DNA of 64,000 nt from a virus, in the IMG/VR virus record IMGVR_UViG_3300037424_001177, positions 95,229 to 159,228 of that record. One strand, given 5' to 3'. Below, one piece after another: positions 3,490 to 50,115 of the stretch; within the stretch, counting starts at the first letter, position 1; each line of letters begins with the position of its first letter. A program made the translations under genes and the position numbers. The notes below the pieces were generated by a model. The model made no database searches. It was not told the DNA's origin and worked only from the letters and a program-made list of their open reading frames with translations.

Positions 3490-3501
3490 GTTTATACTTG
3501 C

Positions 3502-6129
3502 ATGGCAATCAAGGACTATGGGCCGGCCACGTCCGGGTATTTGGACCCTGCGGATCGTGCTTGGGAAACAGTCGTAATTCAGGCTGGAAAACCGATCCTT
3601 GATAAGGAACTCAACCTTGTACAAGATGTTGAGCAAGAAGCGGAGCTAGTCACCCGTCGCCGCTCCTTTCCTTCAGGGTGGATGTCGGACCAGTTTCTCA
3701 ATGTAACTCAATCCGGTCTCTTGAACGCGCTCGTTACGACAGCCAACACGATCCAGCTCGCGACACAGCGTGCGCACGTCAATGGCTGGCTTGTCCACGT
3801 TGCCGATACAGGCGATGCGACAGAGTTGAACGTTTTGAGTCTTGGTGCAGGACCTGTCGGTGCTGGGACCAAACGGACTGACCTCATCATTCTGGAGGTC
3901 TGGCGTCGTCTTATTCCTGCTGCTCCTACAGCGACCGGGAAGAGTCCAGCAGCGAGGATCTGGCGCTACGGAAACGTCAAGATCCCGTCGGCTAGCGACT
4001 TGGCGCTGAACTTCGCTGACGACATCTTGGACGGAGCTGTAGGGTCTGAAACCACGAAGCGCGTTCAGATCCAGTATCGACTCCGCGTCATCAGTGCAGT
4101 CGATCTGTTCACCTTTCCTAACGGTATCGACGATCCGACTGTCGTGGCTAACACTGTGCCGGCCACGGCTGCGGCTCCTGACGGAACGGCTACGATCTAC
4201 ACGTATACGAATCAGTCTTCGCTGGGCGACCCTGGTCTTTGGCGAACCGGCAATGGAGACCCAACCAACACACTAGGCACGGTCGACGGTTACATGTACG
4301 CGTTGCCTTTGTGCGCTGTGTTTCGACGCAACACGACGGCTTTTGCAAGAAACACAAACCACAACGGCGGTGTAGCGTTTCCTGGTCCTTCGGACCGTCC
4401 GGACAGTTTGTTCAGCGACAACATCGTTGCCAGGGACATTCTCGACTTGCGGTTTGGTACGTCGCCAACTGGTTGGGATCTGCAAGAGGTAGCGCAACGT
4501 AACTTGCACCTCTTGCTCGACAACCAAATCCAAACTGAGATTGGTGCAACGTTGTTGGGTGGGGGTCTTCACGGGCACACTGTCATGTGGGCCGATGAAA
4601 TCGGAGTGTCGAACGCGAACGGCGGTGACGGAACGACGACGGGTGACACCCCGGGCGCAGAATTCATTGGCGAGTTTGACGCCGTACGCCGAACATTTTC
4701 GGACCGCACGATCTACGAAACGATCGTTTTGAGGTTTACGCCGGCAGACGGCTCGGGCGGTGGCCCTAGCTGGGCGGACGGAGACACCATCACTATCTCG
4801 CCGTCTGCGCTGCCCATTTGGCCATACACAGCATTCAACTGGACAGCTTTTGCCCCATCCACGATTTCGTTCGTAGACATCGTCCGTGTTGCGTACCTTG
4901 GTGAATCATTGGGACAGAATTCCGTCAATGTTACGACGGACACAACGTCGCCTCGTTGGAGCATTGAGGGCCTCGGTAGTGTTCCACAGGGCGCTCTGAC
5001 GTTTCGGATTCACACAACGATCGGTGGGGCATCACCCATCTACATTTCGGTTCTCATCGCGTATCCGTCCGGAGCCGGCCTTTTTCGTACACCAACAGCT
5101 ATTTTTGCAAACAATGCTGTTCTTCCAACTTTGCAAGGTGTGTTCATCAACAACCCTGCACAACTTCCAGCTGGATCTCCGATTCTTTACAGTGCTCTCC
5201 AGATCCCGACTTTCAACACACCGAACCGTGAAGTGTCGTTGTCCTATACGACTGTTTCGCATTCTAGGACGTTCTTCTCGACTTCAACCACGACAACGAT
5301 CGCCCTGCCTGAGCGTGCAATCACAGGCACGGTTTCCATCTCACAAGCTCCGGGCGGTCCTTACGGTGGTTCCATCACGGTCTCGAGTGATGGGTACCTT
5401 CTGACATTGAGCCCTGCGGTTGGCGGGGGTGGCGTCACTGTCACCGTCACCTACCAGTCGATCCGTCCATTGCCGCAGAATGACGAGCAGCTGACCGTCT
5501 ACTACGAGGCGCGTTTGCCGCAAACAGTACGCGAAGCTCTGCTCGGTACGAGTTTGAGTTTGATCCCTCGACTGGTCACACAAGATGTCTACGCGTTGAC
5601 TGCGGGGAGTGGTAGTGATGGCCAAGGTTACCCGTTTCCGTCTGCGTACGTCCAATCAGGGGGCGTTTACCCGACATCCGGCGGCACGTTTACAGGGGAT
5701 CACGAACTTGACGGCGCTCTGCGTGTATCCGTAACCACGTTGTTTGCGGATACGGGTTTTCTACGTCTCCCTGCACACGTGCCCGTTGTTCCCTTGCCTG
5801 ACGACTTTGTGTTCAGCCGCGTCCCAGGGGATGTCGACGCAGAAGGACGTACCTTTTTCAAGGCTTTGACTAGCGCGTATAAGCCGTTGGGCGTCGCGCA
5901 GCCACTGAGCGACCCGAAGCGTCACAAGAACTTTTTGCCAATCCTTTGTGAGTTGTCCGTCGACACTCCGTTTGGGTTCAAGGGCGAACTTGTGCTGCTC
6001 TTGCTTACGAGATGGGCTTCTTTCGATGACGAAAACACGATCGCTTTCATGTCGAGTCTTGTATCGAACCGTTCGAGCGCCAGCGTGTACAAGCTCAAGG
6101 GACAACTGCTAGGCAATCGTAGGAGCTAG
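3502..6129 (+). CDS. Large baseplate wedge/tail structural protein (DUF4815-like N-terminus)
   Basis: N-terminal VVIQAGKPILDKELNLVQD motif; paralog of 8769..12824. Confidence 0.6.
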   Translation: MAIKDYGPATSGYLDPADRAWETVVIQAGKPILDKELNLVQDVEQEAELVTRRRSFPSGWMSDQFLNVTQSGLLNALVTTANTIQLATQRAHVNGWLVHVADTGDATELNVLSLGAGPVGAGTKRTDLIILEVWRRLIPAAPTATGKSPAARIWRYGNVKIPSASDLALNFADDILDGAVGSETTKRVQIQYRLRVISAVDLFTFPNGIDDPTVVANTVPATAAAPDGTATIYTYTNQSSLGDPGLWRTGNGDPTNTLGTVDGYMYALPLCAVFRRNTTAFARNTNHNGGVAFPGPSDRPDSLFSDNIVARDILDLRFGTSPTGWDLQEVAQRNLHLLLDNQIQTEIGATLLGGGLHGHTVMWADEIGVSNANGGDGTTTGDTPGAEFIGEFDAVRRTFSDRTIYETIVLRFTPADGSGGGPSWADGDTITISPSALPIWPYTAFNWTAFAPSTISFVDIVRVAYLGESLGQNSVNVTTDTTSPRWSIEGLGSVPQGALTFRIHTTIGGASPIYISVLIAYPSGAGLFRTPTAIFANNAVLPTLQGVFINNPAQLPAGSPILYSALQIPTFNTPNREVSLSYTTVSHSRTFFSTSTTTTIALPERAITGTVSISQAPGGPYGGSITVSSDGYLLTLSPAVGGGGVTVTVTYQSIRPLPQNDEQLTVYYEARLPQTVREALLGTSLSLIPRLVTQDVYALTAGSGSDGQGYPFPSAYVQSGGVYPTSGGTFTGDHELDGALRVSVTTLFADTGFLRLPAHVPVVPLPDDFVFSRVPGDVDAEGRTFFKALTSAYKPLGVAQPLSDPKRHKNFLPILCELSVDTPFGFKGELVLLLLTRWASFDDENTIAFMSSLVSNRSSASVYKLKGQLLGNRRS

Positions 6130-6131
6130 AG

Positions 6132-7913
6132 ATGCCGAGTACCGCTGACCCTAGTACTATTACGACCGGCCCTGGAAAGCTTCACAACGATGTTGTGAAC
6201 GCTGCGGCGGACTTGTACGCACAGACCAGCTCGGCTGTTCTAGGTGTATTGGTAGGCGTCCTCAATCAACCGTTGGCGGCCCCTAGTGTAACGGCCTCGT
6301 TTGCTTCAGGTTCTTCAGCTGACGCAACGCTGCTGTTGGTCAACACAACTTACGGGCCTTTCTACGTTGGGGATTCCGGTGGAGACCAATTGCAGGACCT
6401 GTTTCGTGTTGTCAATGCCGCTGACGACACAGAAATTTTTGATCCGGTCAGTCGAACTTACGTTGCAGTTACTGCCATTTCTCCAGCAGCAATTGGTGCG
6501 GGGTTCTTTGCAGCGAACTTGACGCTGACATTCACGCCCTCAATCCCACAGAACGTCACTTACAAGGTCTACTACGGAAAGCAAGCTTTGGTCGGTAGTT
6601 TGCCGATCGAGTTGGCAAGTCACCCAACGATACGTCGTTCGCCCGACCGTGTACGTTTTCCTGAGTACCTGCGTAGTGGTATTGCACCGACGGTCATCGT
6701 CAATACAGCAACAGATCTGGGTCTTTATTTAGACCCCTACAAATCACACTGGCGTGCCCATCTACGAGGCGCGACTGTGCACCCCACGACCGGCGCGTCC
6801 AGTGGCTCTACCGGATACGTCTACGTTGGACGAAAAAAGAACGTTGCTGACGCCAACGACCGAGGACTTGTCGGTCACCAAGCGGCCGGATTCCTAGCCG
6901 TCTACGAAAAAGACATCGCATCAGGAACTCTTGGCGGTGCAACTGCGTGGACTAGGGTCAATGCTTCTTCAGTTGGGACGGTTTCGGCAACTGATGAATT
7001 GGAGCTGGCGGCCTCAGACTACTGGTACCTTTCAGGACCGTTCCGCACGGCGGTCAGAGTGGGTGTTGATCTCGCTGAAATCACGTACACGACGGGCACC
7101 AAGATCGGAACAAGGGAAGTCTACATCATACGTTCCCTTGACCCCCTGAACTCGAGACAATGCTCCGTGAATGTGTTGGGCGGGGAGTCTTCAGGCTCTG
7201 CTGTGCTTCCGGATGTTGGGGAGTCCGTGAACATTCGTTGGATTCGCACAGGGTTCTTTGCTGGGGGTGACACGGATCAATTTGGGGACGCAGAAAATCG
7301 ACTAAATGGTTTCGGGCATTTGGTGCCAGGCGCCATAACCGCGACGCCGACTTCCGAGATTGCCCAAACCCCACCGTTCTGGTCAGCTGGAACGCTTGAC
7401 ACAGCTCGTGGGGGGACAAGCGATTGGAACTTGCGTGCTTTGGAGTGGGGCGCGTACACTGAGCAAGGGGCTGCCGTAACTGATCTCGGACGCAAGACCG
7501 TCAAAGGTGAGCTTTGGGGTGACGGATCTATTGAAAGTCGTGGAGGTCGAGTTCGAGGCCTCTTGAGCAGCCGATCACAATCTACGATTGCCATTGGCTC
7601 CACACAGACTCAGACTTTTGACCCGAGAGTCGTCAGCACGATCTATTTCGGGTTCACGGGCGCCAGCAGTTTTGTGCTGACGGTCGCTCTGGACGGGACG
7701 TACACTCCTGAGTTTGGGGACCGCATCACAATCTATGTTGCTTACAACGTCACCGCTGGTAGCTTCGGTGAGTTGTCGTCTGTTGTTTGGCCCTTAGACT
7801 TTCGGTTTTCCGGAACTGACGCCACAACGCCAAGTTCGGCAGGGACGGTGTTGAAGTTCGAGGCTCAGTACATACTTGAGTGGTTCTTGACGAGAACTGA
7901 TTACGGACCGTAA
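6132..7913 (+). CDS. Putative tail/fibre structural protein
   Basis: 593 aa, G/T/S/A-rich beta-type composition, inside structural operon. Confidence 0.5.
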   Translation: MPSTADPSTITTGPGKLHNDVVNAAADLYAQTSSAVLGVLVGVLNQPLAAPSVTASFASGSSADATLLLVNTTYGPFYVGDSGGDQLQDLFRVVNAADDTEIFDPVSRTYVAVTAISPAAIGAGFFAANLTLTFTPSIPQNVTYKVYYGKQALVGSLPIELASHPTIRRSPDRVRFPEYLRSGIAPTVIVNTATDLGLYLDPYKSHWRAHLRGATVHPTTGASSGSTGYVYVGRKKNVADANDRGLVGHQAAGFLAVYEKDIASGTLGGATAWTRVNASSVGTVSATDELELAASDYWYLSGPFRTAVRVGVDLAEITYTTGTKIGTREVYIIRSLDPLNSRQCSVNVLGGESSGSAVLPDVGESVNIRWIRTGFFAGGDTDQFGDAENRLNGFGHLVPGAITATPTSEIAQTPPFWSAGTLDTARGGTSDWNLRALEWGAYTEQGAAVTDLGRKTVKGELWGDGSIESRGGRVRGLLSSRSQSTIAIGSTQTQTFDPRVVSTIYFGFTGASSFVLTVALDGTYTPEFGDRITIYVAYNVTAGSFGELSSVVWPLDFRFSGTDATTPSSAGTVLKFEAQYILEWFLTRTDYGP

Positions 7914-7915
7914 CC

Positions 7916-8584
7916 ATGGGAACCATTTATCTCGTTGATGCACATTCCACGGTTCTCGGCACGTCGAGGATTCGCGATACTGTGAACTTGCAGAGTGGAG
8001 CGTTGAATTTGCGGGGCAGCTTTCCTGTCAATGTGCCGTTTGACGTTCCGGTTGATGGCGTGCCTTCAGACCTTACTGATCTGGTGACCAAGAAATACAC
8101 AGGTCTCTTGTCGTTGTACCCTGGCTACACGACCATCTTGTACGACGAGCAGATTGACGGCATTGGATGGGATGAGGCTACTTCAATCACACTCGGCAAT
8201 GGTATTGGCGGCTTCTTCATTGGTGAACGACAGACGACAGGGGTTGTGCCTGTTGGTTCAAGCGGGGACGGTCTTCTTGCCACTGATTTACACGTTCTTA
8301 CGTCGACCCCGACTTCGTGTATCGTGCGTTACGAAGCTTTCCGTTACGGACTCACGGATCCAATCAGCGGCATTGCGGCTCGTACCTACCAAGAGACGAT
8401 TGATTCAAATTTCCAAGTGTACGTTACGTTCAACAACGACCCAGATCCGTCTGCTTGGTTGTTGGTCACCAATGGTGCGATGTTGACCATACCGCTAGTA
8501 AATCAAGGAAATCAATTCAGGTTGTCATTGTTCAACGAAACAACTCAGAAGACGTGGTTGGGTTCATGGGCCTTGATTTACTAA
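7916..8584 (+). CDS. Putative structural protein
   Basis: 222-aa ORF tightly coupled within structural operon. Confidence 0.5.
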   Translation: MGTIYLVDAHSTVLGTSRIRDTVNLQSGALNLRGSFPVNVPFDVPVDGVPSDLTDLVTKKYTGLLSLYPGYTTILYDEQIDGIGWDEATSITLGNGIGGFFIGERQTTGVVPVGSSGDGLLATDLHVLTSTPTSCIVRYEAFRYGLTDPISGIAARTYQETIDSNFQVYVTFNNDPDPSAWLLVTNGAMLTIPLVNQGNQFRLSLFNETTQKTWLGSWALIY

Positions 8585-8768
8585 CTAAGCCGCCTTACTG
8601 GGGGTGGCCACAAAATTGGGCACCGCCTGTGGACAAGCTACACCCTGAGCGTGAAGTGTCTGAGTGGGATCTTTTCGTGTTGCGCCGTGAGATCCAGGAA
8701 ATATGTCGCAAGTTTAGAACCCAAAATCAAACCGGTGTTGAGGTTCATCGTATCGTGGAGATTGATCA

Positions 8769-11700
8769 GTGACTGATTACCTTGGACCTGGAGTTTCGAG
8801 AGTCCTCTCTGCAAAGCAGAGTGGCTTCAATACTGTGATTTGGCAGTCCGGAAAACCTCCGCTTGATGCGGAATACAATTTGATGCAGTCGATTTCAACG
8901 GAGGGTGAGAGAAATCTTGCGCTTCGAGCGGCGCCTAGCGGCTTTTTGGGAGACGCCGCAAACCCAATCGACTCGTTCGTGACGAACAGGATCTGGTCCA
9001 ATTGGTTCAAGTTTGGTCCACAGTTTGCCGGTGAGAAGCAAGCGATCATGTGGTCCAATGTCAACGGTTGGCTGATACCAGTGACAGGCACCTTGACAGG
9101 CACGCCTCCTGGGTCGCCCAATGACGCGGATACGTGGAACAGAATCACCCTTCCACCGCCACCTGCGAACACAGGGGACGCAAGGATCGACTTCGTGTTT
9201 CTGGAGGTTTGGCAGGCTCGCGTACCACCGAACCCTTCGACGCTCAACAAACCGGGTTCGTCAGCGCTCTACCGCTACGGCAATGTGGAAGGCGGATATA
9301 CCTTTCTAGCTGACGACTTGCAGGACCCTACGATCGGATTTGAAACCACGCAACGGGTCCAGTTGCAGTACCGGATTCGTGTTGTCTCCAACGTCGGTCT
9401 TGCGAGCTACCCTGACGGGTTTGATCCTGCAACCGTCAAAGGGCAGGGGGCGAGTGCGACGGCGACTAGCTTCGTCTTCACGAATATGCGGATCGAGCTT
9501 GGGGATGTTGGCCTCTGGCGTGCAGGTGATGGAACACAGAGCACGCTAGGCTCGGTCGACGGCTACACCTACGCGGTTCCTATCGCAGTTGTCTTTCGTC
9601 GAAATCGTGTTTCGTGGACGGGGGACCCTGGACAGAATCTGAACGGTGCCTTCGATCGCAATCCGACTGCTGTCGATCGGACAGGTTACAAGACGTTTTC
9701 TACAATCCCGTCGCTGGCGAGTGCGTTGACGAGTAGCGCCCTGACGCTGACTTTGGCGACAGTGGTCAACATACCGCTTCCGTTGACGCCAGCGACTCCT
9801 GTAGCCATTCAAATCGGTGACGAGATTCTGACCTACTCGTCCATTACAGGGACGACAATGACTCTCGCAGCCCGAGGACAGTTTGGGTCTTTGGCTGAGG
9901 CCCACGTATCAGGGTCGATAGTCACAGTGCTTTCAGGCCGACCTGATGGACTGTTTGCGGATCAAATCATCAAGGACGATATCCTGGATTTGCGACACTT
10001 GACTGGGCCATCGTTGGACTACGAGGCACTGTTGCGAGGAAACCTGGACCGTCTCCTGCGAGGTCGCCTCAGGGCAACGTGGAAGCGTACAGGTGGAGGT
10101 CCACAAGGTTCGTTCGTATTCTACCAAGACAAGATTTCGGCCTCTCCAGGAGCACTTGGAGTCACGAAGTTAGACGCACCTGACGGGATTCGACAAGTTT
10201 GGGGTGATCCCGTGCTTTTGCAGGCCGTTGTGATCCCTATCAATACACCTAGCACCACTACAGGTTCGGTTTCAATAGGCGGCACATTAGGCGCCCCATT
10301 TAGCAGTGTTGTATTGAATCATCCAGCCCCGGCCGCAGGCTTCCAAGTTGGGGACATAATCACGGTTCCTAAAAGCTTGTTCATAGGCTCACTGCCTGGA
10401 TCAGACGTTGACCAAATCACGCTTGTTGCGGTTCAATCGTACGTCAAGTTACGGTTCCTTGGCGAATCCGCCGATTTGTCGCTAGCGCAATACAGTGTTG
10501 CCAACAACGGGTCTGGCGACCTGCTCATTACTTTCACAGGGTCATTTGTCGTACGCACTGTTGGGGCATTCATCACGATGCATGTGTTGTACGGTGCCGG
10601 ACGCGGGCTTTCACGTCGACCTGACGCGATACATAGCCTTGCGTATTTGTCAGGCCATCCAGATATCCTGTTACAAATTCAAGGTCTCCCTGCCGACAAT
10701 CAAAGCTTGCGTACTACGTGGCTTGCGCAGTGGAGTCGGTACCGCAACGCCATGTTCAATGGAGGCCTGCCTTCGACCTGCGAATCGTACGCCGATCCGG
10801 GGAGCAAGACTGTTGTGTTGACTCCCTTTCGACGGATTCCGTACACAGCGGGTTCTGGTGGAACCCCGGCAAACTCTACTTTCAAAACGGCCCAAAAAAC
10901 AGCTGGAGCGACTCTTGGTGCTATGCCCGCTAACACGCCTGCGGGAGGCGTGAAATGGGTAGCCACAGATCCTCTTGCTTTGTTTTCGAATTATCTTGAT
11001 GTGTCCGCTGGCGGAAACATGGTTGTTGTCGTCCCTCGACGACTGCTCCCCGGTTGGGGTGAAGTGAGAGTCCCCATCTTACCAGTTGATTCAGGATCTT
11101 TCGCTCAAGGAATTAACTTCTGTATCGAAGCGAAAAAAGGATCTGCCCCGCTACCAGCTGTCGTCGCGAATTACGTACCGCAGACATCCGGTAGTGGTTC
11201 GGCGAGCTATCAAATATTTTCGACGACGGACAACTTCACTACGTTCACGTCCGCTGTGTACAACACGTCATTTATAGGCGTAGGAAACAAGATGGCGGGG
11301 ATGCGGTTTTTTACGGATGGCCGAGGTCTGGGACGTCAGGGATTAGAGTTACCACCTTTTTACGGTATTGCGCGGTTGTTCGCTGTGTATGAAGCGCAGG
11401 ACTACGGCACCAATAACAGTGCGTTTGATCCTACAACTCGTGAACCTTTGGTATCGGGAGGTGCAAAAAACCTCTTGCGTCAAAATTTCTCTGGTCCTAC
11501 ATTTTGGATTGAATCAGATGTTGACGGAGATCCAACGTTCATTTTGAACGCTGATGTGATCGACATTACGAAGAGTCCAAATCCTATTGCGTCGTTCAGT
11601 GCCGCAGACTATGTGATCGAGGCCTCAATCTTTGGGTGTGATCGTGGGTTTTTTGACTTCAACCAGGATGCACGCATCGTACTTAATCGTGGATGGATCC

Positions 11701-13877: not shown

Positions 13878-13952
13878 GTCACCGGGGCCCGATAAAGCGT
13901 CTGAGGAGTCACCACGTCAGGACCGTCTATCCGATATTGGTACTCGTTCCAG
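13878..13952 (-). repeat. 75-bp diverged duplicate of the 3' end of the Cys-rich lipoprotein gene (spacer-like segment)
   Basis: 67/75 identical to 14052-14126, ungapped. Confidence 0.95.
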
Positions 13953-14032
13953 TTTCAATTTATCCGCTGTCCTAAGACCAACGGAAAGACCAATTTAGCA
14001 GAGTGGTCTTTCCGTTGCAAGTGTTGAACACT
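13952..14032 (-). CRISPR. Promoter + single CRISPR-like repeat cassette (A1), heading a mini-array
   Basis: TTGCAA(14020-14015)-17 nt-TAAATT(13997-13992) with TG extension, then CTTTCCGTTGGTCTTAGGACAGCGGATAAATTGAAAC (37 nt, hairpin + ATTGAAAC end). CRISPR nature is inferred. Confidence 0.6.
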
Positions 14033-16570
14033 CTAGAACGCCTGGTACGTAGTCACTGGGGCCCGATACAGCGTCTGAGGAGTCACCACGTCAGGACCGT
14101 CTACCTGATACGGGTATTGGTTCCAGTAGCCCCAGCTCAGCCAGTACACGTAGTCGTCGTCAGCGACATCGGCAATGACCGCGTAGGCTTGGTGCGAATA
14201 CCCTGTCCAATAGCCGCTCGTGAAGTTTCTCGTGTCCAGGTATTGATAGTTTGTGTAGATCAGGTCGCCTTTGCTGAACTGGTACTCGCTACCGACCCCG
14301 AGGCTTCCTGTGGTTTGAAAATGCAACAGATCGGCTGTCGCGTCCTCGGGGTAGGCGCCGAAGATGAAGTATTTGTTGTCGGAGGTCGCGATGATTTGGC
14401 CCGACTCCATTCTGATCAAGTCGACAGGCCAGTGCAGAGGTTGACCTGTAACAAGGAAACCATTTTCGTTGATGTATGTGGCGGAGAACGCTAACGAGGT
14501 CTCGTTTTCGATGGTTGACGGTATCGGCGAGGGGCCCGTCGTCGAGTGCTTCAACAACCCTGCGACGTAGGAAGGTTGGACGTTCCAGTAGTAGATGAAG
14601 TCTTCGTCGACGACAATTTTTGGTGGTATCCACCAAGTACCTGTGATTGCGAAGACGACTTCTCCGTACGACAGTGAATCAATTGGCGCACGGTAGAACG
14701 TCACGGTTCTGAACGGGTAGCCGATCGGATCGCAGCCATTGCCAACCCCGTAACACGGTCCTTCCTGGTCCTCGTTGTGCCAGTAAACGTGTGTCGAGTT
14801 CTTCGTGAGGCGCTGGACTAAGCGTCCACTATAGACTTGCGTGCAGTTGAGCGGATCTGGAATCGTTGTCGCGCAGCGTATGATTTCGGACGTATTGGCG
14901 CCGTTAGAGACTGATCCTTTGATGATGTACAGGTGTTGCCCAGCCGCTAATATGCCGCCGATGCCAGTGTTGATGTCGAAACTCGTGATGAGTTCGGACG
15001 CGCTTCCGTCCTTGGGCATTTTTCGAACAATGGCTTGATTTGCGTCGTAGTCGTATTCGGAGGTGTAGAGGTTGTTCTCGTCTTGGGTCAGACCTTGCCA
15101 TCCACTGCTCCCCCCACCTGGATGGACCGCAATCGGTTCGATCCCCGGGTACTCGCAGGTCCCGTTGAGGCATTGGCCGCCGTTGCACGCGAGCCCACAC
15201 ACGCCGCAGTTCGTGTCGTCGTTCTGGATGTTTGTTTCACATCCGGGAGCGGCCGTGCAGTCAGCGAAACCTTGGATGCAGGTGAAGCCGCATCCTTCGA
15301 CGGCGCCGACACAAATTGGATCAGCGTTCTCGGGTGTCGCCGTGCAAGCGTCGCCACACGACGTGCAGTTGGTCGAAGAGCCGAACGTGGTTTCACATCC
15401 TGGAGCAGCCGTACAGTCGGCGAAGCCAGTCACACAGGCGGTGCTACACACGCCAGCCCCTGAGCAGATTGGCGCCGTGTTCGGATCGACCGGACACGAG
15501 ACGATCGAGCCCCATTCTCCCGTAGCGTCGCAAGTCTCAGTCGCAGAGCCACTGCAACGCATCGTCCCTGGCTCACAGTTGCCCGTACAGGCTCCGTTCA
15601 GGCAGGCGTAGGGGCAAGTTGTCGTTGGCGGCTGCCAAGCCCCCTGGGTGTCACAAGATTCGATTCCGAGCCCGGAGCAACGTAGGTCTCCTGGCTCACA
15701 CGTCCCGGCACAGACGCCGTCACCGTCGCAAGCGAATTCACAGTCAGTGTCCGGGATCCATTCCCCGTTCGAGTCACAAACTTCGACGGTCGGCCCTCCG
15801 ACACATCGCTTGGTTCCGGGGATGCATTCCCCGGTACAGGAGGCCGTGCCCGATTCCTCTTTGCACACGAAGTCACAAATGTTGGTCTGGACAAATAGAC
15901 CTTGTCCGTCACACAAGGCAGTGATCAGGGTCATGGTCAGGTCGGGAACTTGTAGGCACGCGTTGGTCCCAGGCACACATACGCCTGTACATGCACCGTT
16001 TTCGCAGCCGAAGGGACATGATTCAGTAGACCATTGTCCGAAGGCGTCGCAGATCTCGTGTTCCCCTGTGTTGAGCGTACAGCGAGCGTCTTCGGGAACA
16101 CACTCACCGATGCATCCGAATTCGTTGTCACAGGCGAACGGACACGTTTCGGTTGGGATCCATTCCGAGCCGTCTTGGCGACAGGATTCGAACGCGGAGC
16201 CGTTGCACTGGGTCGTGCTTGGTTCGCAAAATGTCGTCGCAGGTGAGCCAGCTGTTCCTGTTCCTCCGATGCCAGTCACTCCTGCGCTTCCGCCAGGGGA
16301 GCTGCCACCAGATCCACCAGAACCGCCTAGGTTATCGGCACCCGCGTCTGGCTCAGGTGTGGTGACGGGATCCGTTCCACTTTGAGAGCCTCCAGAACTT
16401 GCGTTTATAGCGGGCTCGAGTTCGGGCGGAATAGGGGCGGAACCCGGTATGCCGATTTGCTTCGGCCCGTAGAGGCTTTCTCCGCAACCTGCGACAGCGA
16501 GCAAGATCGCGAATAATGTGCCAAATCTGGACGGGCAGGTCTTCCGGTTACCTTTGAAGTCGTGTACCAT
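14033..16570 (-). CDS. Cys-rich lipoprotein with Gly/Ser linker, tandem Cys repeats and C-terminal beta-propeller (myxobacterial type)
   Basis: Lipobox LAVAG-C; repeated CPFAC..G.C.G.C.PG..RC units; CETN...D..NCG.CG..C; C-terminal VYW/IYY blade motifs. Confidence 0.75.
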   Translation of the reverse strand: MVHDFKGNRKTCPSRFGTLFAILLAVAGCGESLYGPKQIGIPGSAPIPPELEPAINASSGGSQSGTDPVTTPEPDAGADNLGGSGGSGGSSPGGSAGVTGIGGTGTAGSPATTFCEPSTTQCNGSAFESCRQDGSEWIPTETCPFACDNEFGCIGECVPEDARCTLNTGEHEICDAFGQWSTESCPFGCENGACTGVCVPGTNACLQVPDLTMTLITALCDGQGLFVQTNICDFVCKEESGTASCTGECIPGTKRCVGGPTVEVCDSNGEWIPDTDCEFACDGDGVCAGTCEPGDLRCSGLGIESCDTQGAWQPPTTTCPYACLNGACTGNCEPGTMRCSGSATETCDATGEWGSIVSCPVDPNTAPICSGAGVCSTACVTGFADCTAAPGCETTFGSSTNCTSCGDACTATPENADPICVGAVEGCGFTCIQGFADCTAAPGCETNIQNDDTNCGVCGLACNGGQCLNGTCEYPGIEPIAVHPGGGSSGWQGLTQDENNLYTSEYDYDANQAIVRKMPKDGSASELITSFDINTGIGGILAAGQHLYIIKGSVSNGANTSEIIRCATTIPDPLNCTQVYSGRLVQRLTKNSTHVYWHNEDQEGPCYGVGNGCDPIGYPFRTVTFYRAPIDSLSYGEVVFAITGTWWIPPKIVVDEDFIYYWNVQPSYVAGLLKHSTTGPSPIPSTIENETSLAFSATYINENGFLVTGQPLHWPVDLIRMESGQIIATSDNKYFIFGAYPEDATADLLHFQTTGSLGVGSEYQFSKGDLIYTNYQYLDTRNFTSGYWTGYSHQAYAVIADVADDDYVYWLSWGYWNQYPYQVDGPDVVTPQTLYRAPVTTYQAF

Positions 16571-24576: not shown

Positions 24577-24973
24577 GCGAGGCGAAATCTCAGCGTTGTT
24601 GGTTCAGTCCCACAACGGTATTTGGGAGTCAGAGTGGGATTCATTGCGTGGGACTATCTACGAAGGCTTGGTCACCAAGGTCGATTTTGAAATCTTAGAG
24701 CAAGCTCTTCAGGGGTGGAGTCGCCCCTTGTCAGAGGCCCTCGGTTTGCCGCCAGTCGGATCGATCAAAAAGTTACCTATTGAAGCGAAACAGTGCTCAC
24801 AAAAACAAACCTGTCCGTTTCACGACAAGCATTGCCAAGCTGAGCATCGACAACGCCCGCCATGTTACATGCCCGGCGGTGTTGTAGGAGACGTGCAGGA
24901 GACATTGACGCGGGCTCTCGACCTCTGGAAGCTAGACGTCTACATTTTGGTGGTCGAACGCGATGGCATCTGA
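24545..24973 (+). CDS. Hypothetical Cys-containing protein
   Basis: ORF overlapping both neighbours in replication operon. Confidence 0.55.
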   Translation: MARQVKIPTHERGEISALLVQSHNGIWESEWDSLRGTIYEGLVTKVDFEILEQALQGWSRPLSEALGLPPVGSIKKLPIEAKQCSQKQTCPFHDKHCQAEHRQRPPCYMPGGVVGDVQETLTRALDLWKLDVYILVVERDGI

Positions 24974-27887
24974 AGACGACGACCTCTTGAGTTTTTTGGG
25001 ACTCGTCGAAACTCCCAAAAAATCCGAACCAAAAAAGGCAATGACTCCTATTGCGGTGGGAGGTAACGCCGAAGCATTTCTAGCGTTGCAGAACGACATT
25101 GCGGACAAGGTCAAAGAAACTTCTCTACGTAAACGGTGGATGAAGTTTCATCGTTTCACTTTGGTGAAGACGGTCGAGGAAGTTCGTGCTTTGGTAGACC
25201 GTGCGCTAGCACATGGCCGCTGTTCCCTGGATCTTGAAACTGGAGGATTCGACAACCGCATTGACTACGTCGACGGGCGTCCGAGAACCAAACATCAAAT
25301 TGTAGGGTACGCCATTTCAGTTCGCGGACACGGACACTACATTCCGGTGCGTCACCACTACGACGCCAATTACGAGGAGCGTGACCCAAACGTTCCTGTT
25401 GAGTCCGTGGAGCAAGAGATCACACGACTTTGCCGAGCATCCCAACCTGTCTTGACTCCGGAAGGGTTAGCCGACGATCCGTTAGGATCAAAGGCAATAC
25501 AAGAACCTGGAAAGGTCATCGTCTATTTCGCCAATGCCAAGTTCGACCAGGAGTTTCTGTACCCTGTTACCGGCATCGACTTCTGGCATCCGTCGAGCTT
25601 TGAAGACGCGGAGCTTGCGATTTATGCTGTGCACTCTGACGCTGATCTCGGCTTGAAGGACAACGCTCTACGGTTTCTCAAGATCAAAGACCCTGAGACG
25701 AAGGAATACGTCCCGTATGAGATGATCAACTACGACGAGCTGTTTCCTCCCAACACGCCTCGTAGGGAGCGCAAGATTGCCACGCGCTATCCTGACGACG
25801 ACAGTGACATCGTCGTCTACGGCTGCTCGGATGCTATTTGCACCGAATTGCTTTGCGAGCATCGCAAGACGGATTGGGAACACACGCAGCCCGGTCTGGA
25901 GTATGATTATCGGGAGGTCGTCAGCGCTGTCATCGAGTCCAAGTACACGTTCACGTATCGTCTGGAGAAACAGACTGTACAGGTGATTCGTGTCATGGAG
26001 CGAAACCGCTCCAAGATTGATCGGGCAGAAATCCAAAGACTGTTAACTGAGGCTGAGGCCGAACTAGCGACGTTACTGACGGAAATACGAAAGGTTGGGA
26101 TAGCGCGTGACAGGACCTTGTTCGCGGAACTGAACCCAGGATCGCCGAAGCAATTGTCGGATTTCTTGTTCTCGGAAAGAGGACTTGATCTAAAACCGAA
26201 ACCGAATTTCACGGAGGCTAAGCAGCAATACGAGACCAACGCCAAGGTCCTCGAGAAGCTCGGTGACGCCCCAGGGGCCTCTAAGGTCCTGACCGACATC
26301 ATCAAGTACAAGCAAATCGACAAGATCAAGGGCACCTATCTACAGGGGATGTTGGATACGTGTGATGACCAGGACCAACTGAGGTACAAGTTCAATCAGT
26401 TGGGGGCCATCACAGGTCGATTTACTGCACCCCAAGGTGATACTAGCGACGGCTACGCGGGAATCCCAATTCAGGGGATCCCTGTTCGAGACGATCCCAA
26501 AAAACCCAAGGTCGCACATTCGCTGCGGCGAGCCTTCATCGCACGTGACGGCTACACCTTGGTGAAGTGCGACTACTCAGGGCAAGAGCTTCGAATTTCC
26601 ACCAATCTGTCTGGCGAGGACGTGTGGATCAATGAGTTTTTGCACGGCACTGGCGATATCCATACGATCACAGCCAAGAACATCTTCGGTCCACACATCA
26701 CCAAGAAAGATGAAGTCGAGCGAGACAAAGGCAAGCGCGTCAACTTCTCCATCTTGTATGGAGGTGGGATCAAGGCTGTTCAACGGAACGCAGGATGTGC
26801 GGAGCATGACGCTGCTCGCTGGATCGAACAGTTCCTAGCGGGGGTGCCCAAGATAGAGCAATGGATCAAGAAGCAACACGCGTTTGTCAAAGCCAACAAG
26901 GGTGTCTATTCGGCATTCCGTCGTTGGATTGAGGTTCCTGGTGCGGCCATCAAAGAGGGGGATCTTTCGTGTCAACGGTGTGGGCACTGTTTTACCCCGA
27001 AGAAAGCTGAGACAGAACCTTGTTCAAATTGCGGAGAGAAAATACGTCTAGCCGTAATTGACAAGAAAGAAGCCTGGTCAAGAAAGGGCTCAGCCGAACG
27101 CGAGTCCGTTAACTACCCTGTGCAGGCCACAGGAGCTGACATCATGAAAGTTGCTTTGGTGCTCCTCACTAAAGCATTTCGCAAGCTCAATTGGGACCGG
27201 TATTACGATCAGAATTGGAACCAACTCGGAGACGACCGGGTTCGTATGATTCTGACAGTGCACGACGAAATCGTGTTCGAGATCAAGCATCAACATTTGA
27301 TGGAGGTGATTCCTGTCGTCATTGAGCTCATGGAATATCCGAGTCAGCTGCTACAATGGAAAGTCCCTTTAGTTGTCGATGTCTCACTGGGCCTGAACTG
27401 GGGCAGCAAGATCGCGTGGGACAAGGTGATTTCCAAGAAGACCCCTGTGCCAGAGTGGCTGGTGGAGTTCGTGACTCCAGACGCTTTGCCTGAGAAGATA
27501 CCAGCCGGTCTACCACTGGTCCCGACGATTTCGTCAACTGCGACGACTTTTACTCCGCCTGCTGCTTCTGTCTCGACGGTTCGTGCCGCGTCGCCGGTAG
27601 ACCCCTTGCCAAAGACCGCGACAAATGGTATCCAAAAACCAGTCGCGAAAAAAATTGCTCGATTCGTACTGTGCCAGACGTACCTCACAGAAGCTTCTGT
27701 GAGACTGACCTATGAGGCGGTGGCTGGATCGCTCCAACCTGGAGGGGATGTGTTATTGTGTCTGGTCGATCAGCACGATAACGTGCTGATCGACCCTTTG
27801 GAGAAACCGATACCGATTGACCCTGTATGTTTTGGTCACAAGATGGCGGATCGCGGGTTGGGTCCTGTAACTTACGTGCTGACTTGA
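24963..27887 (+). CDS. polA: Family A DNA polymerase with 3'-5' exonuclease
   Basis: ExoI DLETGG; TGRF; motif A CDYSGQELR; motif B KRVNFSILYG; motif C TVHDEI. Confidence 0.93.
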   Translation: MASEDDDLLSFLGLVETPKKSEPKKAMTPIAVGGNAEAFLALQNDIADKVKETSLRKRWMKFHRFTLVKTVEEVRALVDRALAHGRCSLDLETGGFDNRIDYVDGRPRTKHQIVGYAISVRGHGHYIPVRHHYDANYEERDPNVPVESVEQEITRLCRASQPVLTPEGLADDPLGSKAIQEPGKVIVYFANAKFDQEFLYPVTGIDFWHPSSFEDAELAIYAVHSDADLGLKDNALRFLKIKDPETKEYVPYEMINYDELFPPNTPRRERKIATRYPDDDSDIVVYGCSDAICTELLCEHRKTDWEHTQPGLEYDYREVVSAVIESKYTFTYRLEKQTVQVIRVMERNRSKIDRAEIQRLLTEAEAELATLLTEIRKVGIARDRTLFAELNPGSPKQLSDFLFSERGLDLKPKPNFTEAKQQYETNAKVLEKLGDAPGASKVLTDIIKYKQIDKIKGTYLQGMLDTCDDQDQLRYKFNQLGAITGRFTAPQGDTSDGYAGIPIQGIPVRDDPKKPKVAHSLRRAFIARDGYTLVKCDYSGQELRISTNLSGEDVWINEFLHGTGDIHTITAKNIFGPHITKKDEVERDKGKRVNFSILYGGGIKAVQRNAGCAEHDAARWIEQFLAGVPKIEQWIKKQHAFVKANKGVYSAFRRWIEVPGAAIKEGDLSCQRCGHCFTPKKAETEPCSNCGEKIRLAVIDKKEAWSRKGSAERESVNYPVQATGADIMKVALVLLTKAFRKLNWDRYYDQNWNQLGDDRVRMILTVHDEIVFEIKHQHLMEVIPVVIELMEYPSQLLQWKVPLVVDVSLGLNWGSKIAWDKVISKKTPVPEWLVEFVTPDALPEKIPAGLPLVPTISSTATTFTPPAASVSTVRAASPVDPLPKTATNGIQKPVAKKIARFVLCQTYLTEASVRLTYEAVAGSLQPGGDVLLCLVDQHDNVLIDPLEKPIPIDPVCFGHKMADRGLGPVTYVLT

Positions 27888-27895
27888 CGCCATGG

Positions 27896-27981
27896 TTTCA
27901 ATTTATCCCCCATCTAACGAAGACGACGGAAAACTCAACTTAGCAGAAGTAATCTTTCGTCACAAGCAACTCCTTACTTTC
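27896..27981 (-). mobile_element. Promoter + single CRISPR-like repeat cassette (B), 11-bp flanking duplication
   Basis: TGACGCCATGG at 27885-27895 and 27982-27992; TTGTGA-17 nt-TAAGTT; TTCCGTCGTCTTCGTTAGATGGGGGATAAATTGAAAC. Confidence 0.75.
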
Positions 27982-27988
27982 TGACGCC

Positions 27989-28513
27989 ATGGCGAAGCAA
28001 GACTACCTCCGGCTCTGCAACGACCACAATGTCTCTCACGAGGACTTCACGTTGCAGTTCTGTTCTCGTTGTCAGCAGGCGGAGTGCTCTCGCAGTCAGC
28101 ATGGAAGATCCAGATTTGATCAGCGCGTCCTCTCCTGGGAGAGTCGTCTCTTTACGGGGGTGTCTCGCATGTCCCAAGACGACAGCCGGTACTCTGAAAT
28201 CACGGCCAAGCATTTTGTCGAGGTCGAGCAGCCCAGATCAGAGTGGGTGGATCCTAGGGAAGTCCCTTCCACGACGACTATCTCGATTCCTGCGCCCAAT
28301 GTACATACTGACGTTTCGGAACCTGAACCGGTTGTACAGGTGACCGACCTTGACCCGGTTGCACGGATCCCCAGTTACAACACACCTGTGCGCCAAGGCC
28401 AAATGATCGGCACGCCGATAACAACGCCGAGCGTCAAGGCTGATCCGTGGGAAGCCCCAATCAAGAGCAATGAGCGGATTGTGAAGCCTGGAGCCAAGAT
28501 TAGGTTTCAGTGA
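27989..28513 (+). CDS. Hypothetical protein with N-terminal Cys motif
   Basis: C..F...FCSRC...EC.RS; ATG lies in the duplicated 11-mer. Confidence 0.6.
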   Translation: MAKQDYLRLCNDHNVSHEDFTLQFCSRCQQAECSRSQHGRSRFDQRVLSWESRLFTGVSRMSQDDSRYSEITAKHFVEVEQPRSEWVDPREVPSTTTISIPAPNVHTDVSEPEPVVQVTDLDPVARIPSYNTPVRQGQMIGTPITTPSVKADPWEAPIKSNERIVKPGAKIRFQ

Positions 28514-44962: not shown

Positions 44963-45034
44963 GGAGGTGTAGCTAAATGGTAATGCAACGTGCTTTTAAC
45001 ACGTAGATTGCAGGTTCGAGCCCTGTCACCTCCA
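44963..45034 (+). tRNA. trnK: tRNA-Lys(TTT)
   Basis: Cloverleaf, loop CTTTTAA. Confidence 0.9.
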
Positions 45035-45040
45035 CTTGAT

Positions 45041-45113
45041 GGGTTGCTAACTCAACAGGTAGAGTAGCAGGTTCTTAACCTGAAAGTTCCGAGTTCGATT
45101 CTCGGGCAGCCCA
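45041..45113 (+). tRNA. trnK: tRNA-Lys(CTT)
   Basis: Cloverleaf, loop TTCTTAA. Confidence 0.9.
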
Positions 45114-45122
45114 CAGTTCGTA

Positions 45123-45196
45123 TTCCAGGATCGGCTAATTGGTAGGCCACGTCGCTCTGAACGACGGAACGCTGGTTCGATTCCAGCTCCTGGAAC
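45123..45196 (+). tRNA. trnQ: tRNA-Gln(CTG)
   Basis: Cloverleaf, loop CTCTGAA. Confidence 0.88.
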
Positions 45197-45312
45197 TGAG
45201 ACTTCAGGTCTCTTCAAAAGTCCTTTCGAGGACCTTGCTTTTTGACAATTCGTGTTTTTTCACTCGTGTGGCAGATCGGTGCCCACCCAGGTACCGATCT
45301 GCCCACAAACTT

Positions 45313-45388
45313 GTCCCATTAGTCTAGTGGCTCAGGACGCTGCCTTCTCAAGGCGGTAGCGACGGTTCGAATCCGTCATGGGACGCCA
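45313..45388 (+). tRNA. trnE: tRNA-Glu(CTC)
   Basis: Cloverleaf, loop TTCTCAA, CCA end. Confidence 0.92.
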
Positions 45389-45389
45389 T

Positions 45390-45473
45390 TGTAGGGTCGC
45401 GTAACGGTAGCGCACTCGGCTGTTAACCGAGCGAGGAAAACCTCATTTGCAGGTTCGAGTCCTGCCCCTACAG
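45390..45473 (+). tRNA. trnN: tRNA-Asn(GTT) with long variable arm
   Basis: Loop CTGTTAA; extra GAGG-AAAA-CCTC arm. Confidence 0.85.
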
Positions 45474-45917
45474 CTAGACCTTGCCCTTCTTCCAAACGAG
45501 TTTTTGTGCCGCCTCCCGAATGATGCGGAGCGTTGTGTCAGCTTGCTCTATCCGACCGTCGGACCGGAGTTCTTGCTCGGCCCGTTTCAAGTAGTTGACT
45601 TGGGCTTGAGCCAGCTTGGCCCGAACGTTAGCTCCTGAGTCATCCGTTCTGATTTGTGTTTCCTGCAAAATGCTCTTGGGCAGGACAGTGACGACCGTGT
45701 CGTACTTTTTGAGAACGGTTTCAAGCTGCGGCATTTCGTAGGCTACGAGATCCAAATTCTCCCCGAACCCTCGTGTAGTCGGGATGATCGATCCGTCGGC
45801 CGTTTCCTCGATTCTCCACTTAGTTTTGTTCCAGAGGAGCGAGAACCTACTTCCGTTGACTGCGTTGTCCCAACGAGCTGTTTTATAGCGCTGAACGACG
45901 CGGGCCGGGCTGTCCAT
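45474..45917 (-). CDS. Hypothetical protein with RVxxRY N-terminal tag
   Basis: MDSPARVVQRYKTA; AAGGAAG RBS. Confidence 0.6.
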   Translation of the reverse strand: MDSPARVVQRYKTARWDNAVNGSRFSLLWNKTKWRIEETADGSIIPTTRGFGENLDLVAYEMPQLETVLKKYDTVVTVLPKSILQETQIRTDDSGANVRAKLAQAQVNYLKRAEQELRSDGRIEQADTTLRIIREAAQKLVWKKGKV

Positions 45918-45944
45918 ACTTCCTTGGTTTTGACAAGTATTTTC

Positions 45945-46020
45945 GCGGGTGTCACCTCAATGGCGAGGTCGTTGCCTTCCAAGCAAATGTCGGCCGGTTC
46001 GATTCCGGTCACCCGCTCCA
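45945..46020 (+). tRNA. trnG: tRNA-Gly(TCC)
   Basis: Loop CTTCCAA, TCCA end. Confidence 0.9.
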
Positions 46021-46096
46021 AAATGTAAAATATTGACTTGATCGTGTTTTGGATCGTAGGTTTCCATTTTGGGGAAAACCAAATGAGATACCACAC

Positions 46097-47353
46097 ATGA
46101 AAACCATCCAAATCACACTCGCCGTCGCCCTACTTTTTGCGTGCTCAGGCGCACCTAACCAACGAGTCCCACAAGATGTCGAGGTGGTCACACAGGCACT
46201 CAGCGACTACGCTATCACTGCCACGGTGATCGACAATCCTGCGGCCGGGCTCACACGGACCAAGCACACCGTCCAGCAGGGGACAGATCCTCTGAACGTG
46301 TTTGGCGTGACCCGCGTCAAGTCTTCGTACTCACACAAGCCGGTCATTCTTCACGGACCATTTGGATACGACTACCGATGGTACGAGCTCACAGAGACGA
46401 CCAACTACCGGAAGTCCTTTCTAGGCTCCCTCGCGACGTTAGGGTTCGATGTTTGGGTGATCGACGACAGGTTGTCGAAGCAAGCCCCAGGGACTTGCGA
46501 AGTCACTGGTTGCCTAGCGATGGGCGACTGGACTGTGCAGACTAGGGTCGACGACGCAGAGTTCGTGAGAGGCCTTGTTCTTGGTGCCTACGGCTTGAAC
46601 CAGAAGGTCGTGATCGGGGGCTACGTCGGTGGCGCCATGTTCGCACAAGCGACCGTCAACGCGTTCCCTGACCACTACGCGGGCTTGTTCCTTTGGGAGG
46701 GCTCGATGGTGGCGGATTCCGCCCAACAGGCGTTCTCGGCACCCAACTGTGGGCTCCTACAGTTCGTCACCTCTCTCGGGATCTACTCTGATCCGACTCC
46801 CCAAATCTTCGCGTTACTGTTCCAACTGAAGCAAGCTGACCCAACAGGGATCTCGCCAGTGCCTGGGATCCCTGGACTTGAGTTCCTAGCTGCCAAACTC
46901 GCTGAGCTGGGGATCGTGAACGCGACGAATGATCAGGTCTTCTACGTGGTCAGCACGCAACATTTGAACAATCCCAACTGGCCGACGCCAAGCTTTCACT
47001 TCCTCGCCGGTGACTCAACCGGTGTCGACTTCGCTTCAGAGCCTCGCTACCTCAAGATTGGTGGCATCGTGGACGCCTATGCCAGCCTGACCACAATCCG
47101 GGACATCACGTGCGGCCTGGCAGGCGATACGACGTACACGGACAACCTAGCGGCCTTCGAGGGCAAAGTCTTGGCGCTTGGTGCGCATGGCGGGTTCGGT
47201 GCTGAGCTTGAGTTCACGGAAGCCGCTTACGAAAACGCGGACTACGACGTGTTCGTGAACGAGGACTTCGGCGAGAGCGATCGCTTCTTCAATCCACATC
47301 GCTTCTTGCTCGCAGACGTTCCCTTTGCTATTTGGGCATCGACAGTTTTTTAA
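46097..47353 (+). CDS. Alpha/beta-hydrolase-fold lipoprotein
   Basis: Lipobox LLFA-C; ILHG, GFDVW.ID.R; elbow reads GYVGG. Confidence 0.65.
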   Translation: MKTIQITLAVALLFACSGAPNQRVPQDVEVVTQALSDYAITATVIDNPAAGLTRTKHTVQQGTDPLNVFGVTRVKSSYSHKPVILHGPFGYDYRWYELTETTNYRKSFLGSLATLGFDVWVIDDRLSKQAPGTCEVTGCLAMGDWTVQTRVDDAEFVRGLVLGAYGLNQKVVIGGYVGGAMFAQATVNAFPDHYAGLFLWEGSMVADSAQQAFSAPNCGLLQFVTSLGIYSDPTPQIFALLFQLKQADPTGISPVPGIPGLEFLAAKLAELGIVNATNDQVFYVVSTQHLNNPNWPTPSFHFLAGDSTGVDFASEPRYLKIGGIVDAYASLTTIRDITCGLAGDTTYTDNLAAFEGKVLALGAHGGFGAELEFTEAAYENADYDVFVNEDFGESDRFFNPHRFLLADVPFAIWASTVF

Positions 47354-47406
47354 CCGTCAGACGTTGAGAGGCTACCAGGTTGCCCTACCGTTAGGGCTAA
47401 TTGACC

Positions 47407-47865
47407 CTAGTCGACGATCCCCATCAGGAAAGCTTCCTCTTCCGACTCCTCGACAACAATCACAGGCTGAGTGTTTGGGATCCCATAGTCCAGGGTCCCA
47501 GCTCTCAGCTCCGTGAGGAGCTGAATTCTCCCCATGTGGTTGCCGAGAAGATCTCGGATTCGCCGCGCCTCAGGCGTTCCGCGTTCGAGGGCATTCTCTT
47601 TGGCTACTTTAGTCAACATCACCCAAGTCGTGGCAGGACCGTCCCCGTCGGCTGTCGTGAATCCCACGTCTCGGTCCTTGACTGAATTGATGGGAAGAAA
47701 GCACTCTTTGGGTCCGAGCCTGTGCTGACGCACAGCTTCCAGAAGCTCGAAAATGTTGTCGTATTTCAATTTTATCCGCCACCCAATGAAGGCGATGGAA
47801 AACAACTTAGCAGAAGGAATCTTGTGTCACAAGTGTTCTCACTCGAAAATGTTGTCGTAGATCAT
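47407..47865 (-). CDS. Hypothetical protein interrupted after codon 8 by cassette C (may restart at an in-frame TTG in the cassette)
   Basis: Removing cassette plus one duplication gives MIYDNIFELLEAV..., with ATG 1 nt after the upstream gene's TAG. Confidence 0.6.
47764..47841 (-). mobile_element. Promoter + single CRISPR-like repeat cassette (C), 18-bp flanking duplication
   Basis: CTCGAAAATGTTGTCGTA at 47746-47763 and 47842-47859; TTGTGA-17 nt-TAAGTT; TTCCATCGCCTTCATTGGGTGGCGGATAAAATTGAAA. Confidence 0.78.
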
Positions 47866-47866
47866 C

Positions 47867-48175
47867 CTAGCGTGGGCCCGGTAGCTTAGGCGCCTTCCGA
47901 GAGTAGTCGCGAGTGTCTTGGGCCGACCAAGTCTGGTTAACGATGCCCGCAGCGTGGTAGAGAGCTGAGGATACCCTCATTTCTTGACCCATCTTTTCCG
48001 CAGCGGTTCCAAGACTCCAAACCGCTGAAAACAAGAGACGCTTCGGGTTGCCGCTACCTTTAGCGATCCTCTTGAGAGCTTCGATCGCCGCTTGAATGTC
48101 TTCGACAGCTTCGGCCGACGGCTTCGCGGCCTCTTTCAAGGAGCGGAACCGGGCTACGACTCGTTTGGCTTCCAT
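47867..48175 (-). CDS. Small protein with RVxxRF tag
   Basis: MEAKRVVARFRSLKEAA; GAGGT RBS. Confidence 0.65.
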   Translation of the reverse strand: MEAKRVVARFRSLKEAAKPSAEAVEDIQAAIEALKRIAKGSGNPKRLLFSAVWSLGTAAEKMGQEMRVSSALYHAAGIVNQTWSAQDTRDYSRKAPKLPGPR

Positions 48176-48477: not shown

Positions 48478-48479
48478 AC

Positions 48480-49079: not shown

Positions 49080-49113
49080 GCGATATCGTCAGGTGTAACA
49101 CCGTGTTTCAAAT

Positions 49114-49184: not shown

Positions 49185-49186
49185 CC

Positions 49187-49861: not shown

Positions 49862-49862
49862 C

Positions 49863-50093: not shown

Positions 50094-50115
50094 GACAAAT
50101 TGTAGCACAAGTTTC

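Follow-up and report, generated by a model that had tools for sequence, protein, structure and literature searches.

A small non-coding element inserted at the stop/start junction of polA in a huge phage and its dispersed, possibly CRISPR-repeat-like family

Introduction

How did an 86-bp non-coding unit come to lie between two genes of a huge phage that in a close relative are separated by four bases, how do both genes tolerate it, and what could be the role of the RNA that it seems to direct into the end of the first of them? The question is raised by the locus of polA, an intact family A DNA polymerase gene (24963..27887, + strand, 974 aa, PF00476, E 4e-74), in a 64-kb stretch of DNA that is referred to here as the window and comprises bases 95229-159228 of the 159-kb IMG/VR virus record IMGVR_UViG_3300037424_001177 (CheckV completeness 33%). 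The polA stop codon, TGA, occupies 27885-27887, and the ATG of the next open reading frame (ORF), an intact gene call of 174 aa that has no Pfam family (27989..28513, + strand), begins at 27989. The unit between them, cassette B, had been described in an earlier note on this DNA as a promoter-bearing cassette that fires antisense into polA. The relative used for comparison is a sister phage, G001 (IMGVR_UViG_3300036760_000522; 301,550 bp with terminal repeats), which is collinear with the window record at about 80-96% nucleotide identity, the C-terminal half of the polA product being about 95% identical as protein. Among GenBank phages neither a close relative of this polA nor similar DNA was found.

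Results

An insertion at the polA stop/start junction

Cassette B (27896..27981, minus strand) is bordered on both sides by the 11-bp sequence TGACGCCATGG. The left copy (27885..27895, + strand) contains the polA stop and a duplicated ATG at 27892-27894, and the right copy (27982..27992, + strand) contains a duplicated TGA at 27982-27984 and the ATG of the next gene at 27989-27991. No other exact copy occurs in the window, where up to one mismatch gives 4 matches against 1.29 expected. In G001 the orthologous junction is uninterrupted and holds one copy (...CTGACT TGA CGCC ATG TCG AAG..., that is stop, 4 nt, start), and compared to this empty site the window genome has 97 extra bases, 86 of the unit and 11 of the duplication. 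Since the junction of G001 is single-copy, the unit and the duplication together represent a 97-bp insertion. The earlier note's statement that the repeated sequence stands on both sides of the 86-bp unit and leaves the two genes intact was thus correct to the base, and its placement of the insertion exactly between the polA stop and the next start is confirmed by the empty 4-nt junction of G001. A spacer of similar length without the duplication, which the note had named as the outcome that would contradict it, is not what this relative has.

By parsimony between the two genomes compared, we infer that cassette B was gained, by insertion into TGA-CGCC-ATG, after the split from G001. Its identity to another copy, D, is 90%, and both copies are absent from G001. 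To judge from these alignments, cassette B is a real small mobile element which keeps both flanking genes intact; it was copied here recently, and the element, which is non-coding and non-autonomous, continues to move in this lineage of huge phages.

What has been duplicated is exactly the stretch from stop to start, and the frame that it opens remains open across the whole of the cassette, which gives a relay ORF of 30 codons (27892..27984, + strand) from the duplicated ATG, 4 nt past the polA stop, to the duplicated TGA, 4 nt before the next ATG. An analogous + strand ORF of 34 codons is found at copy D, from beside the upstream stop to the duplicated stop. In both phages the 174-aa downstream gene lacks a Shine-Dalgarno sequence. 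Taken together, these features suggest that its translation relies on termination-reinitiation and that no insertion survives unless it relays the coupling, the duplication and the open frame probably preserving translational coupling. By our estimate an open, in-register frame would arise by chance at about 8% of sites, and we consider the evidence that the relay ORF gives for coupling as suggestive.

A dispersed family in a single orientation

Five copies of the cassette occur in the 159-kb contig, the + strand as written carrying every one of them: E (genome position 7125), which is shared with G001; D at genome position 75642, which the window genome alone possesses; and, inside the window, A at 13953, B at 27896 and C at 47764, A and C facing a gene on their own strand. 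Two copies belong to G001 only, F at 271,792 and G at 174,239, the latter with a decayed promoter part, and a profile search revealed additional tail-only remnants as well as copies in G001. Presence and absence of the cassettes therefore differ in both directions between the two phages. Orientation in the genome is the same in 7/7 copies that retain some promoter part, for which we calculate a two-sided chance of about 0.016. Each of B, D, F and G sits at the stop/start junction of two co-directional genes and points antisense into the 3' end of the upstream one.

Copy E is the best conserved. Together with its flanks it makes up about 260 bp of non-coding DNA (genome 7040-7300, corresponding to G001 268350-268620) that is near-identical between the genomes, with one 2-nt indel and no substitutions against some 8% divergence elsewhere, and it is possibly a functional master copy or a small RNA gene. 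About 30 nt past its hairpin unit comes another, strong hairpin with a 9-bp stem. The best match of the downstream 'spacer' of this copy was 16/17, which is at chance level.

At the stringencies used, searches of IMG/VR, JGI metagenomes and GenBank phages gave no member of the family outside the two phages. The IMG/VR pattern scans gave the cassette only as chance matches in coding DNA or gave none, the stem-plus-tail pattern matching G001 alone, and scans of JGI metagenomes gave nothing relevant to it.

A promoter-like box and a conserved hairpin on the minus strand

Read on the minus strand, copies A-D present the same order of parts: a -35-like hexamer, TTGTGA or TTGCAA; 17 nt; an extended -10-like TGcTAAGTT or TGcTAAATT; and a unit of about 40 nt that ends in GGCGGA(T/G)AAATTGAAA(C/T). 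The string TGCTA[AG][AG]TTG is present in all full copies. In cassette B the hexamer TTGTGA lies at 27960..27965 and TGcTAAGTT at 27937..27945 (both minus strand). Matches to the sigma-70 hexamers are 4/6 and 3/6, plus the TG extension, and the promoter is for this reason regarded as putative.

Directly behind the box lies the hairpin unit (27896..27936, minus strand), which as minus-sense RNA reads GAGUUUUCCGUCG...GGGGGAUAAAUUGAAA and consists of a stem followed by an 11-nt tail ending in AUUGAAA(C). The fold energy of the B hairpin is -20.9 kcal/mol on the minus strand and -8.7 on the plus strand. Across 10 copies the main helix is 91% paired, as compared to 35-54% in controls with slid partners, and 4 of its pairs show compensatory (two-sided) change. 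Two helix positions are U-G in 9/10 and G-U in 6/10 copies, pairs that are impossible on the complementary strand. These pairs and the covariation support the minus strand as the functional one, which at site B is antisense to polA; the direction proposed in the earlier note is supported in this respect, the promoter-like box being on the same strand. The data support the hairpin as a conserved RNA-level feature of the minus strand. A terminator scan called no intrinsic terminator past the hairpin on this strand, and the hairpin itself has no U-run. An Rfam scan of the region matched no family, which is uninformative, as the same scan also missed the genuine repeat array of G001 described below.

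Likeness to type I-C CRISPR repeats

Cas5d leaves an 11-nt handle on CRISPR RNA. In the cassettes, exactly 11 nt, KAAATTGAAAC, come after the stem, and the last 8 of these are ATTGAAAC/T. In the type I-C repeats that Camara-Wilpert et al. list in their supplement (PMC10651486), the tail after the stem ends in ATTGAAAC or ATTGAAAT, and solitary repeat units (SRUs) of viruses are described with a promoter directly upstream (PMC10651486). The same supplement, which comes from the paper on RNA anti-CRISPRs (Racr), holds no repeat with AAATTGAAAC and no entry for the source sample.

G001 possesses a CRISPR-Cas locus of its own at 2668-10900, with Cas5d (E 3e-15), Csd1/Cas8c, Cas7 (E 5e-56), a 793-aa helicase and then an array of about 2.4 kb, while Cas1 and Cas6 families had no match in either phage record. 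The array begins with 11 near-identical 36-nt repeats and continues with about 17 whose stems covary, the 11-nt tail ATGATTTCAAC being constant, and its spacers have no targets in the two phages. A solitary repeat of the G001 type (stem plus GATGATTTCAAC) stands on the minus strand at G001 298031, far from the array and near the genome end. No array that contains the cassette unit exists in either phage.

The canonical protospacer-adjacent motif (PAM) of type I-C is TTC. In the empty allele, CGA stands immediately 5' of what would be the protospacer, and a TTC is displaced from the register by 2 nt; TTC is out of register likewise at the upstream copy of the repeat.

Mode of insertion

The repeats that flank the cassettes measure 11 bp at B, 18 bp at C, about 15 bp at D, about 16 bp at F and 76 bp at A, and filler bases separate cassette and duplication at D and F. 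The cassette ends, TTTCAATTT... and ...CTTACTTTC, form no terminal inverted repeats. At cassette A, the two copies of the 76-bp repeat lie at window 13878-13953 and 14052-14127, and the left one has 5 differences to the G001 allele of the 3' end of an 845-aa gene versus 8 to the copy in its own genome.

Genome-wide comparison of the two phages disclosed that unrelated insertions also carry flanking repeats of about 11-15 bp. A 1.2-kb TnpB-only element (PF01385 + PF07282) has entered a ATGAAATGA stop/start overlap which is now duplicated on both sides. This element lies outside the window at genome 37747-38952, encodes 384 aa (OrfB_IS605 and a Cas12f1-like TNB domain) and is absent from G001; a 128-bp derivative of it at genome 44662-44789 has about 40 bp of the left end in common and a similar right end, and a remnant, GGATGATC, upstream of cassette C corresponds to its first bases. 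An 8.6-kb island of G001 (152898-161555), absent from the window genome, is bounded by exact 11-bp direct repeats, CCGAGTCGTGG, and by 9-bp inverted ends, CTTTGCCTG, and encodes a 1172-aa MmeI-like restriction-modification enzyme. Finally, an unrelated insert of 90 bp lies between imperfect 15-bp repeats. Scanning of eight ORFs, that of TnpB and seven of the island, detected no transposase.

Because the same repeat signature accompanies unrelated insertions, the duplication is not the mark of a cassette-specific transposase; it rather fits illegitimate or template-switch insertion followed by selection. The empty alleles of B, D and F share TC(A/G) and then CC at the point where the duplication begins, and TTC occurs 1-2 nt upstream in B and D. 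This pattern was considered as a target motif or a PAM, and it may mark a target preference, but our present reading is a putative microhomology of 2-3 nt to AAACC, the end of the cassette. That the cassette might be a guide RNA of TnpB was rejected, as it has no similarity to the TnpB element.

These data also bear on the landing site. The earlier note had seen in it a harmless site of the kind that homing elements favour; the harmless part gains content from the putative relay of coupling, and the homing part finds no support, there being no nuclease gene and no site specificity, with the family at unrelated sites between repeats that range from 11 bp to about 18 bp (A has 76 bp) and repeats of the same kind at insertions that have nothing to do with it.

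Discussion

The proposed explanation and its rivals

The explanation that we favour, at a little less than an even chance, is that a mobile non-coding element has been inserted illegitimately with a duplication that relays translational coupling, that its RNA is a decoy resembling a solitary type I-C repeat, and that its antisense course into polA is a by-product. Insertion would proceed by illegitimate recombination or template switching and not by a transposase, and only those products that duplicated the whole stop-to-start module would have survived, the downstream gene needing translational coupling, which the duplication and the open frame of 30 codons through the cassette would then relay. 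The product of the cassette would be a short RNA that starts with a solitary repeat unit of type I-C shape and would most likely engage a type I-C Cas5/Cascade as its decoy or ligand, in the manner of Racr, the Cascade being probably that of the host. The run into the 3' end of polA would come from the fixed orientation and would not regulate polA.

Mimicry of a CRISPR repeat is for us the best single reading of the hairpin, yet it stays below an even chance, and several of our own results weigh against it. The cassette unit shows no similarity to the repeat of G001 itself, from which it differs in stem and tail. When the tail, which had been selected for, is removed and the remainder is compared to one real I-C repeat, z comes to about 4 in copies G and C and to about 1 in B, and is below 0 in D, and about 0.7% of random 30-mers score as high against an I-C repeat as the cassette body. 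An array with the repeat tail of the cassette was not found in the genome, metagenome or viral scans, the search of 185,579 species genomes giving AT-rich chance matches or unrelated tandem repeats among the matches listed. The promoter-like box received no call in a stricter sigma-70 scan, and the hairpin of B has a G-G mismatch of its own. Besides, in copies C, C' and A' the tail's TTG serves as a true start codon, a behaviour that fits a translation leader better.

The last point leads to an explanation that we regard as rather unlikely but take seriously, namely that the family is a portable expression cassette with no CRISPR link, composed of a promoter, a 5' untranslated region whose hairpin hides the Shine-Dalgarno-like GGCGGA, and a TTG-AAA start, copied in the way of the promoter early stem-loop elements (PeSLs) known in other phages, with B a misplaced copy that has no function. 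The TTG-AAA is indeed in frame with a real gene at C, which G001 begins at the same TTG; at A' it opens an ORF of 132 aa; the hairpin pairs UCCGUC with GGCGGA; and PeSLs are a precedent for mobile units of promoter and stem-loop. Against this, a long ORF behind the TTG exists in only 1/7 of the copies that keep some promoter part, there being none in the other 6/7; in E, of all copies the best conserved, the TTG is followed by an ORF of 3 codons. In four copies, B, D, F and G, the direction is antisense, into the 3' end of the gene on the upstream side, and the spacing from GGAG or GGAT to the TTG is only 3-4 nt. Two further readings would make the RNA act on DNA or on polA itself, and we find each of them improbable. 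In the one, the cassette is a weapon or homing drive with a single guide, the hairpin being the repeat handle and the flank a guide against sibling phages whose polA junction is empty; the presence of a type I-C variant system in G001 and the polymorphism of the family between siblings are in its favour, but the would-be protospacer of the empty allele has CGA at its 5' side and TTC 2 nt out of register, the repeats of G001 have a different stem and tail, neither a terminator nor a second repeat bounds the guide, and in D and F filler bases intervene between tail and flank. A more elaborate version, to which we give equally little credence, would have self-propagating one-guide CRISPR units, in which the promoter and a solitary I-C-like repeat turn the flank of each landing site into a guide, and a Cascade of the phage or of the host attacks siblings with an empty site, so that recombinational repair drives the cassette in or the siblings are excluded, the fixed orientation and the landing at junctions being a part of the cycle.

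In the other of these two readings, the cassette is an antisense regulator, either of polA, by pairing with its last codons, or of itself, by a non-cleaving repression through the 11-nt repeat similar to that of CreA. The orientation and the strandedness of the hairpin do point into polA, and the duplicated 11-mer adjoins the -35-like box. The same orientation is kept, however, at every site regardless of the neighbour, with nothing special about polA; G001 manages without the cassette; no PAM is in register; and the 11-mer is already accounted for by the insertion. The suggestion of the earlier note that the 10-11-nt match might give non-cleaving repression has no support, as no cognate Cas partner was identified, the repeat of G001 is different and TTC is not in register. 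We consider as the most improbable of all that the cassette is a miniature inverted-repeat transposable element (MITE) moved by a transposase encoded elsewhere in phage or host. Flanking direct repeats, multiple copies and presence/absence polymorphism are what one would expect of a MITE, and the 8.6-kb island of G001 with its 9-bp inverted ends and 11-bp repeat provides an apparent parallel, but the cassette has no terminal inverted repeats, its duplications range from 11 to 76 bp and are accompanied by filler bases, it bears no similarity to the ends of the TnpB element, and there was no transposase among the eight ORFs scanned.

Comparison with known systems

The closest likeness of the cassette is to viral SRUs and Racr, RacrIC1 included (Camara-Wilpert et al. 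2023, PMC10651486; Faure et al. 2019), with which it shares the nature of a single repeat-like viral hairpin outside arrays, placed directly behind a putative promoter and having the type I-C geometry of a stem and an 11-nt tail ending in ATTGAAAC/T. It departs from them in that no cognate array was found, similarity past the tail is weak and, as far as checked, no acr genes adjoin it; and while SRUs are not described as mobile, the cassette is multi-copy, dispersed, polymorphic and accompanied by target duplications.

The PeSLs of T4-type phages (Arbiol et al. 2010, PMC2839356; Comeau et al. 2014, PMC4122927) are, like the cassettes, small dispersed units of promoter and stem-loop in large phages and a source of differences between close relatives. 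The stem-loop of a PeSL is a terminator, and PeSLs are sites of recombination that shuffle ORFan genes (PMC2839356; PMC4122927). In the cassette, unlike the PeSL pairing of a stem-loop terminator with a sigma-70-like early promoter, the hairpin is located 3' of the promoter-like box and lacks a U-run; and cassettes B and D are bare and geneless and were inserted with target duplication, which differs from recombination between copies. Target duplications, by which the cassettes are flanked, are not mentioned in the PeSL paper. Compared to viral SRUs and to such cassettes of promoter and stem-loop, the traits that are new here, as judged by the alignment of the two phages, are the multiple copies, the continuing movement and the duplication of junctions.

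The locus of G001 has the same architecture (Cas5d, Csd1, Cas7, helicase and array, with no match to Cas1 or Cas6) as the type I-C variant CRISPR-Cas of huge phages (Al-Shayeb et al. 2020, PMC7162821). For the cassette this is a genomic context only, the tails being ATGATTTCAAC in G001 and KAAATTGAAAC in the cassette. As a guide RNA of type I-C, in the form of a CRISPR RNA (crRNA) or of a mini-array, the cassette seems unlikely, as it differs from the only array available for comparison, that of G001, and the empty allele has CGA and not TTC directly 5' of the flank.

Some MITEs have promoter activity, such as the Correia elements of Neisseria, which are non-coding repeats of about 100 bp between genes and can fire promoters into the neighbours. 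Correia elements end in inverted repeats, and the target that they duplicate is a fixed TA; the cassette, similarly small, dispersed and non-coding, has neither inverted ends nor a fixed duplication, and is not a MITE in this sense. CreA and CreR are reportedly (Li et al. 2021; Liu et al.) crRNA-like regulators in cas loci that act by a PAM-flanked seed match of 10-11 nt. The cassette has in common with them a degenerate repeat and a short partial match near a promoter, and differs in having no in-register PAM and no known cognate Cascade. Nor does cassette B resemble a homing element, being a non-coding unit of 86 bp from a family at unrelated sites, with polA and an unannotated 174-aa ORF as its neighbours.

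If the hairpin is truly a mimic of a CRISPR repeat, this would be the first case in which solitary repeat units multiply and move about in the genome of a virus. RNA anti-CRISPRs would thereby gain a dosage route, and a lineage that has a type I-C variant system of its own would gain a source of new guide-like RNAs. On a plainer reading, the locus would be a clean natural example of how an insertion is tolerated in a gene-dense huge phage, with the stop-to-start module doubled and the frame left open, and the same signature of stop/start duplication is seen at the unrelated TnpB insertion.

Other features of the window

An insert of 273 bp, as compared to G001, lies between exact 26-bp repeats (window 48110-48175 and 48412-48477), which encode the N-terminus MEAKRVVAR... 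common to neighbouring minus-strand genes, and it looks like the gain of a gene by recombination at this common N-terminal tag. The window also contains 21 tRNA genes, clustered on the + strand in several blocks at 44963-54719.

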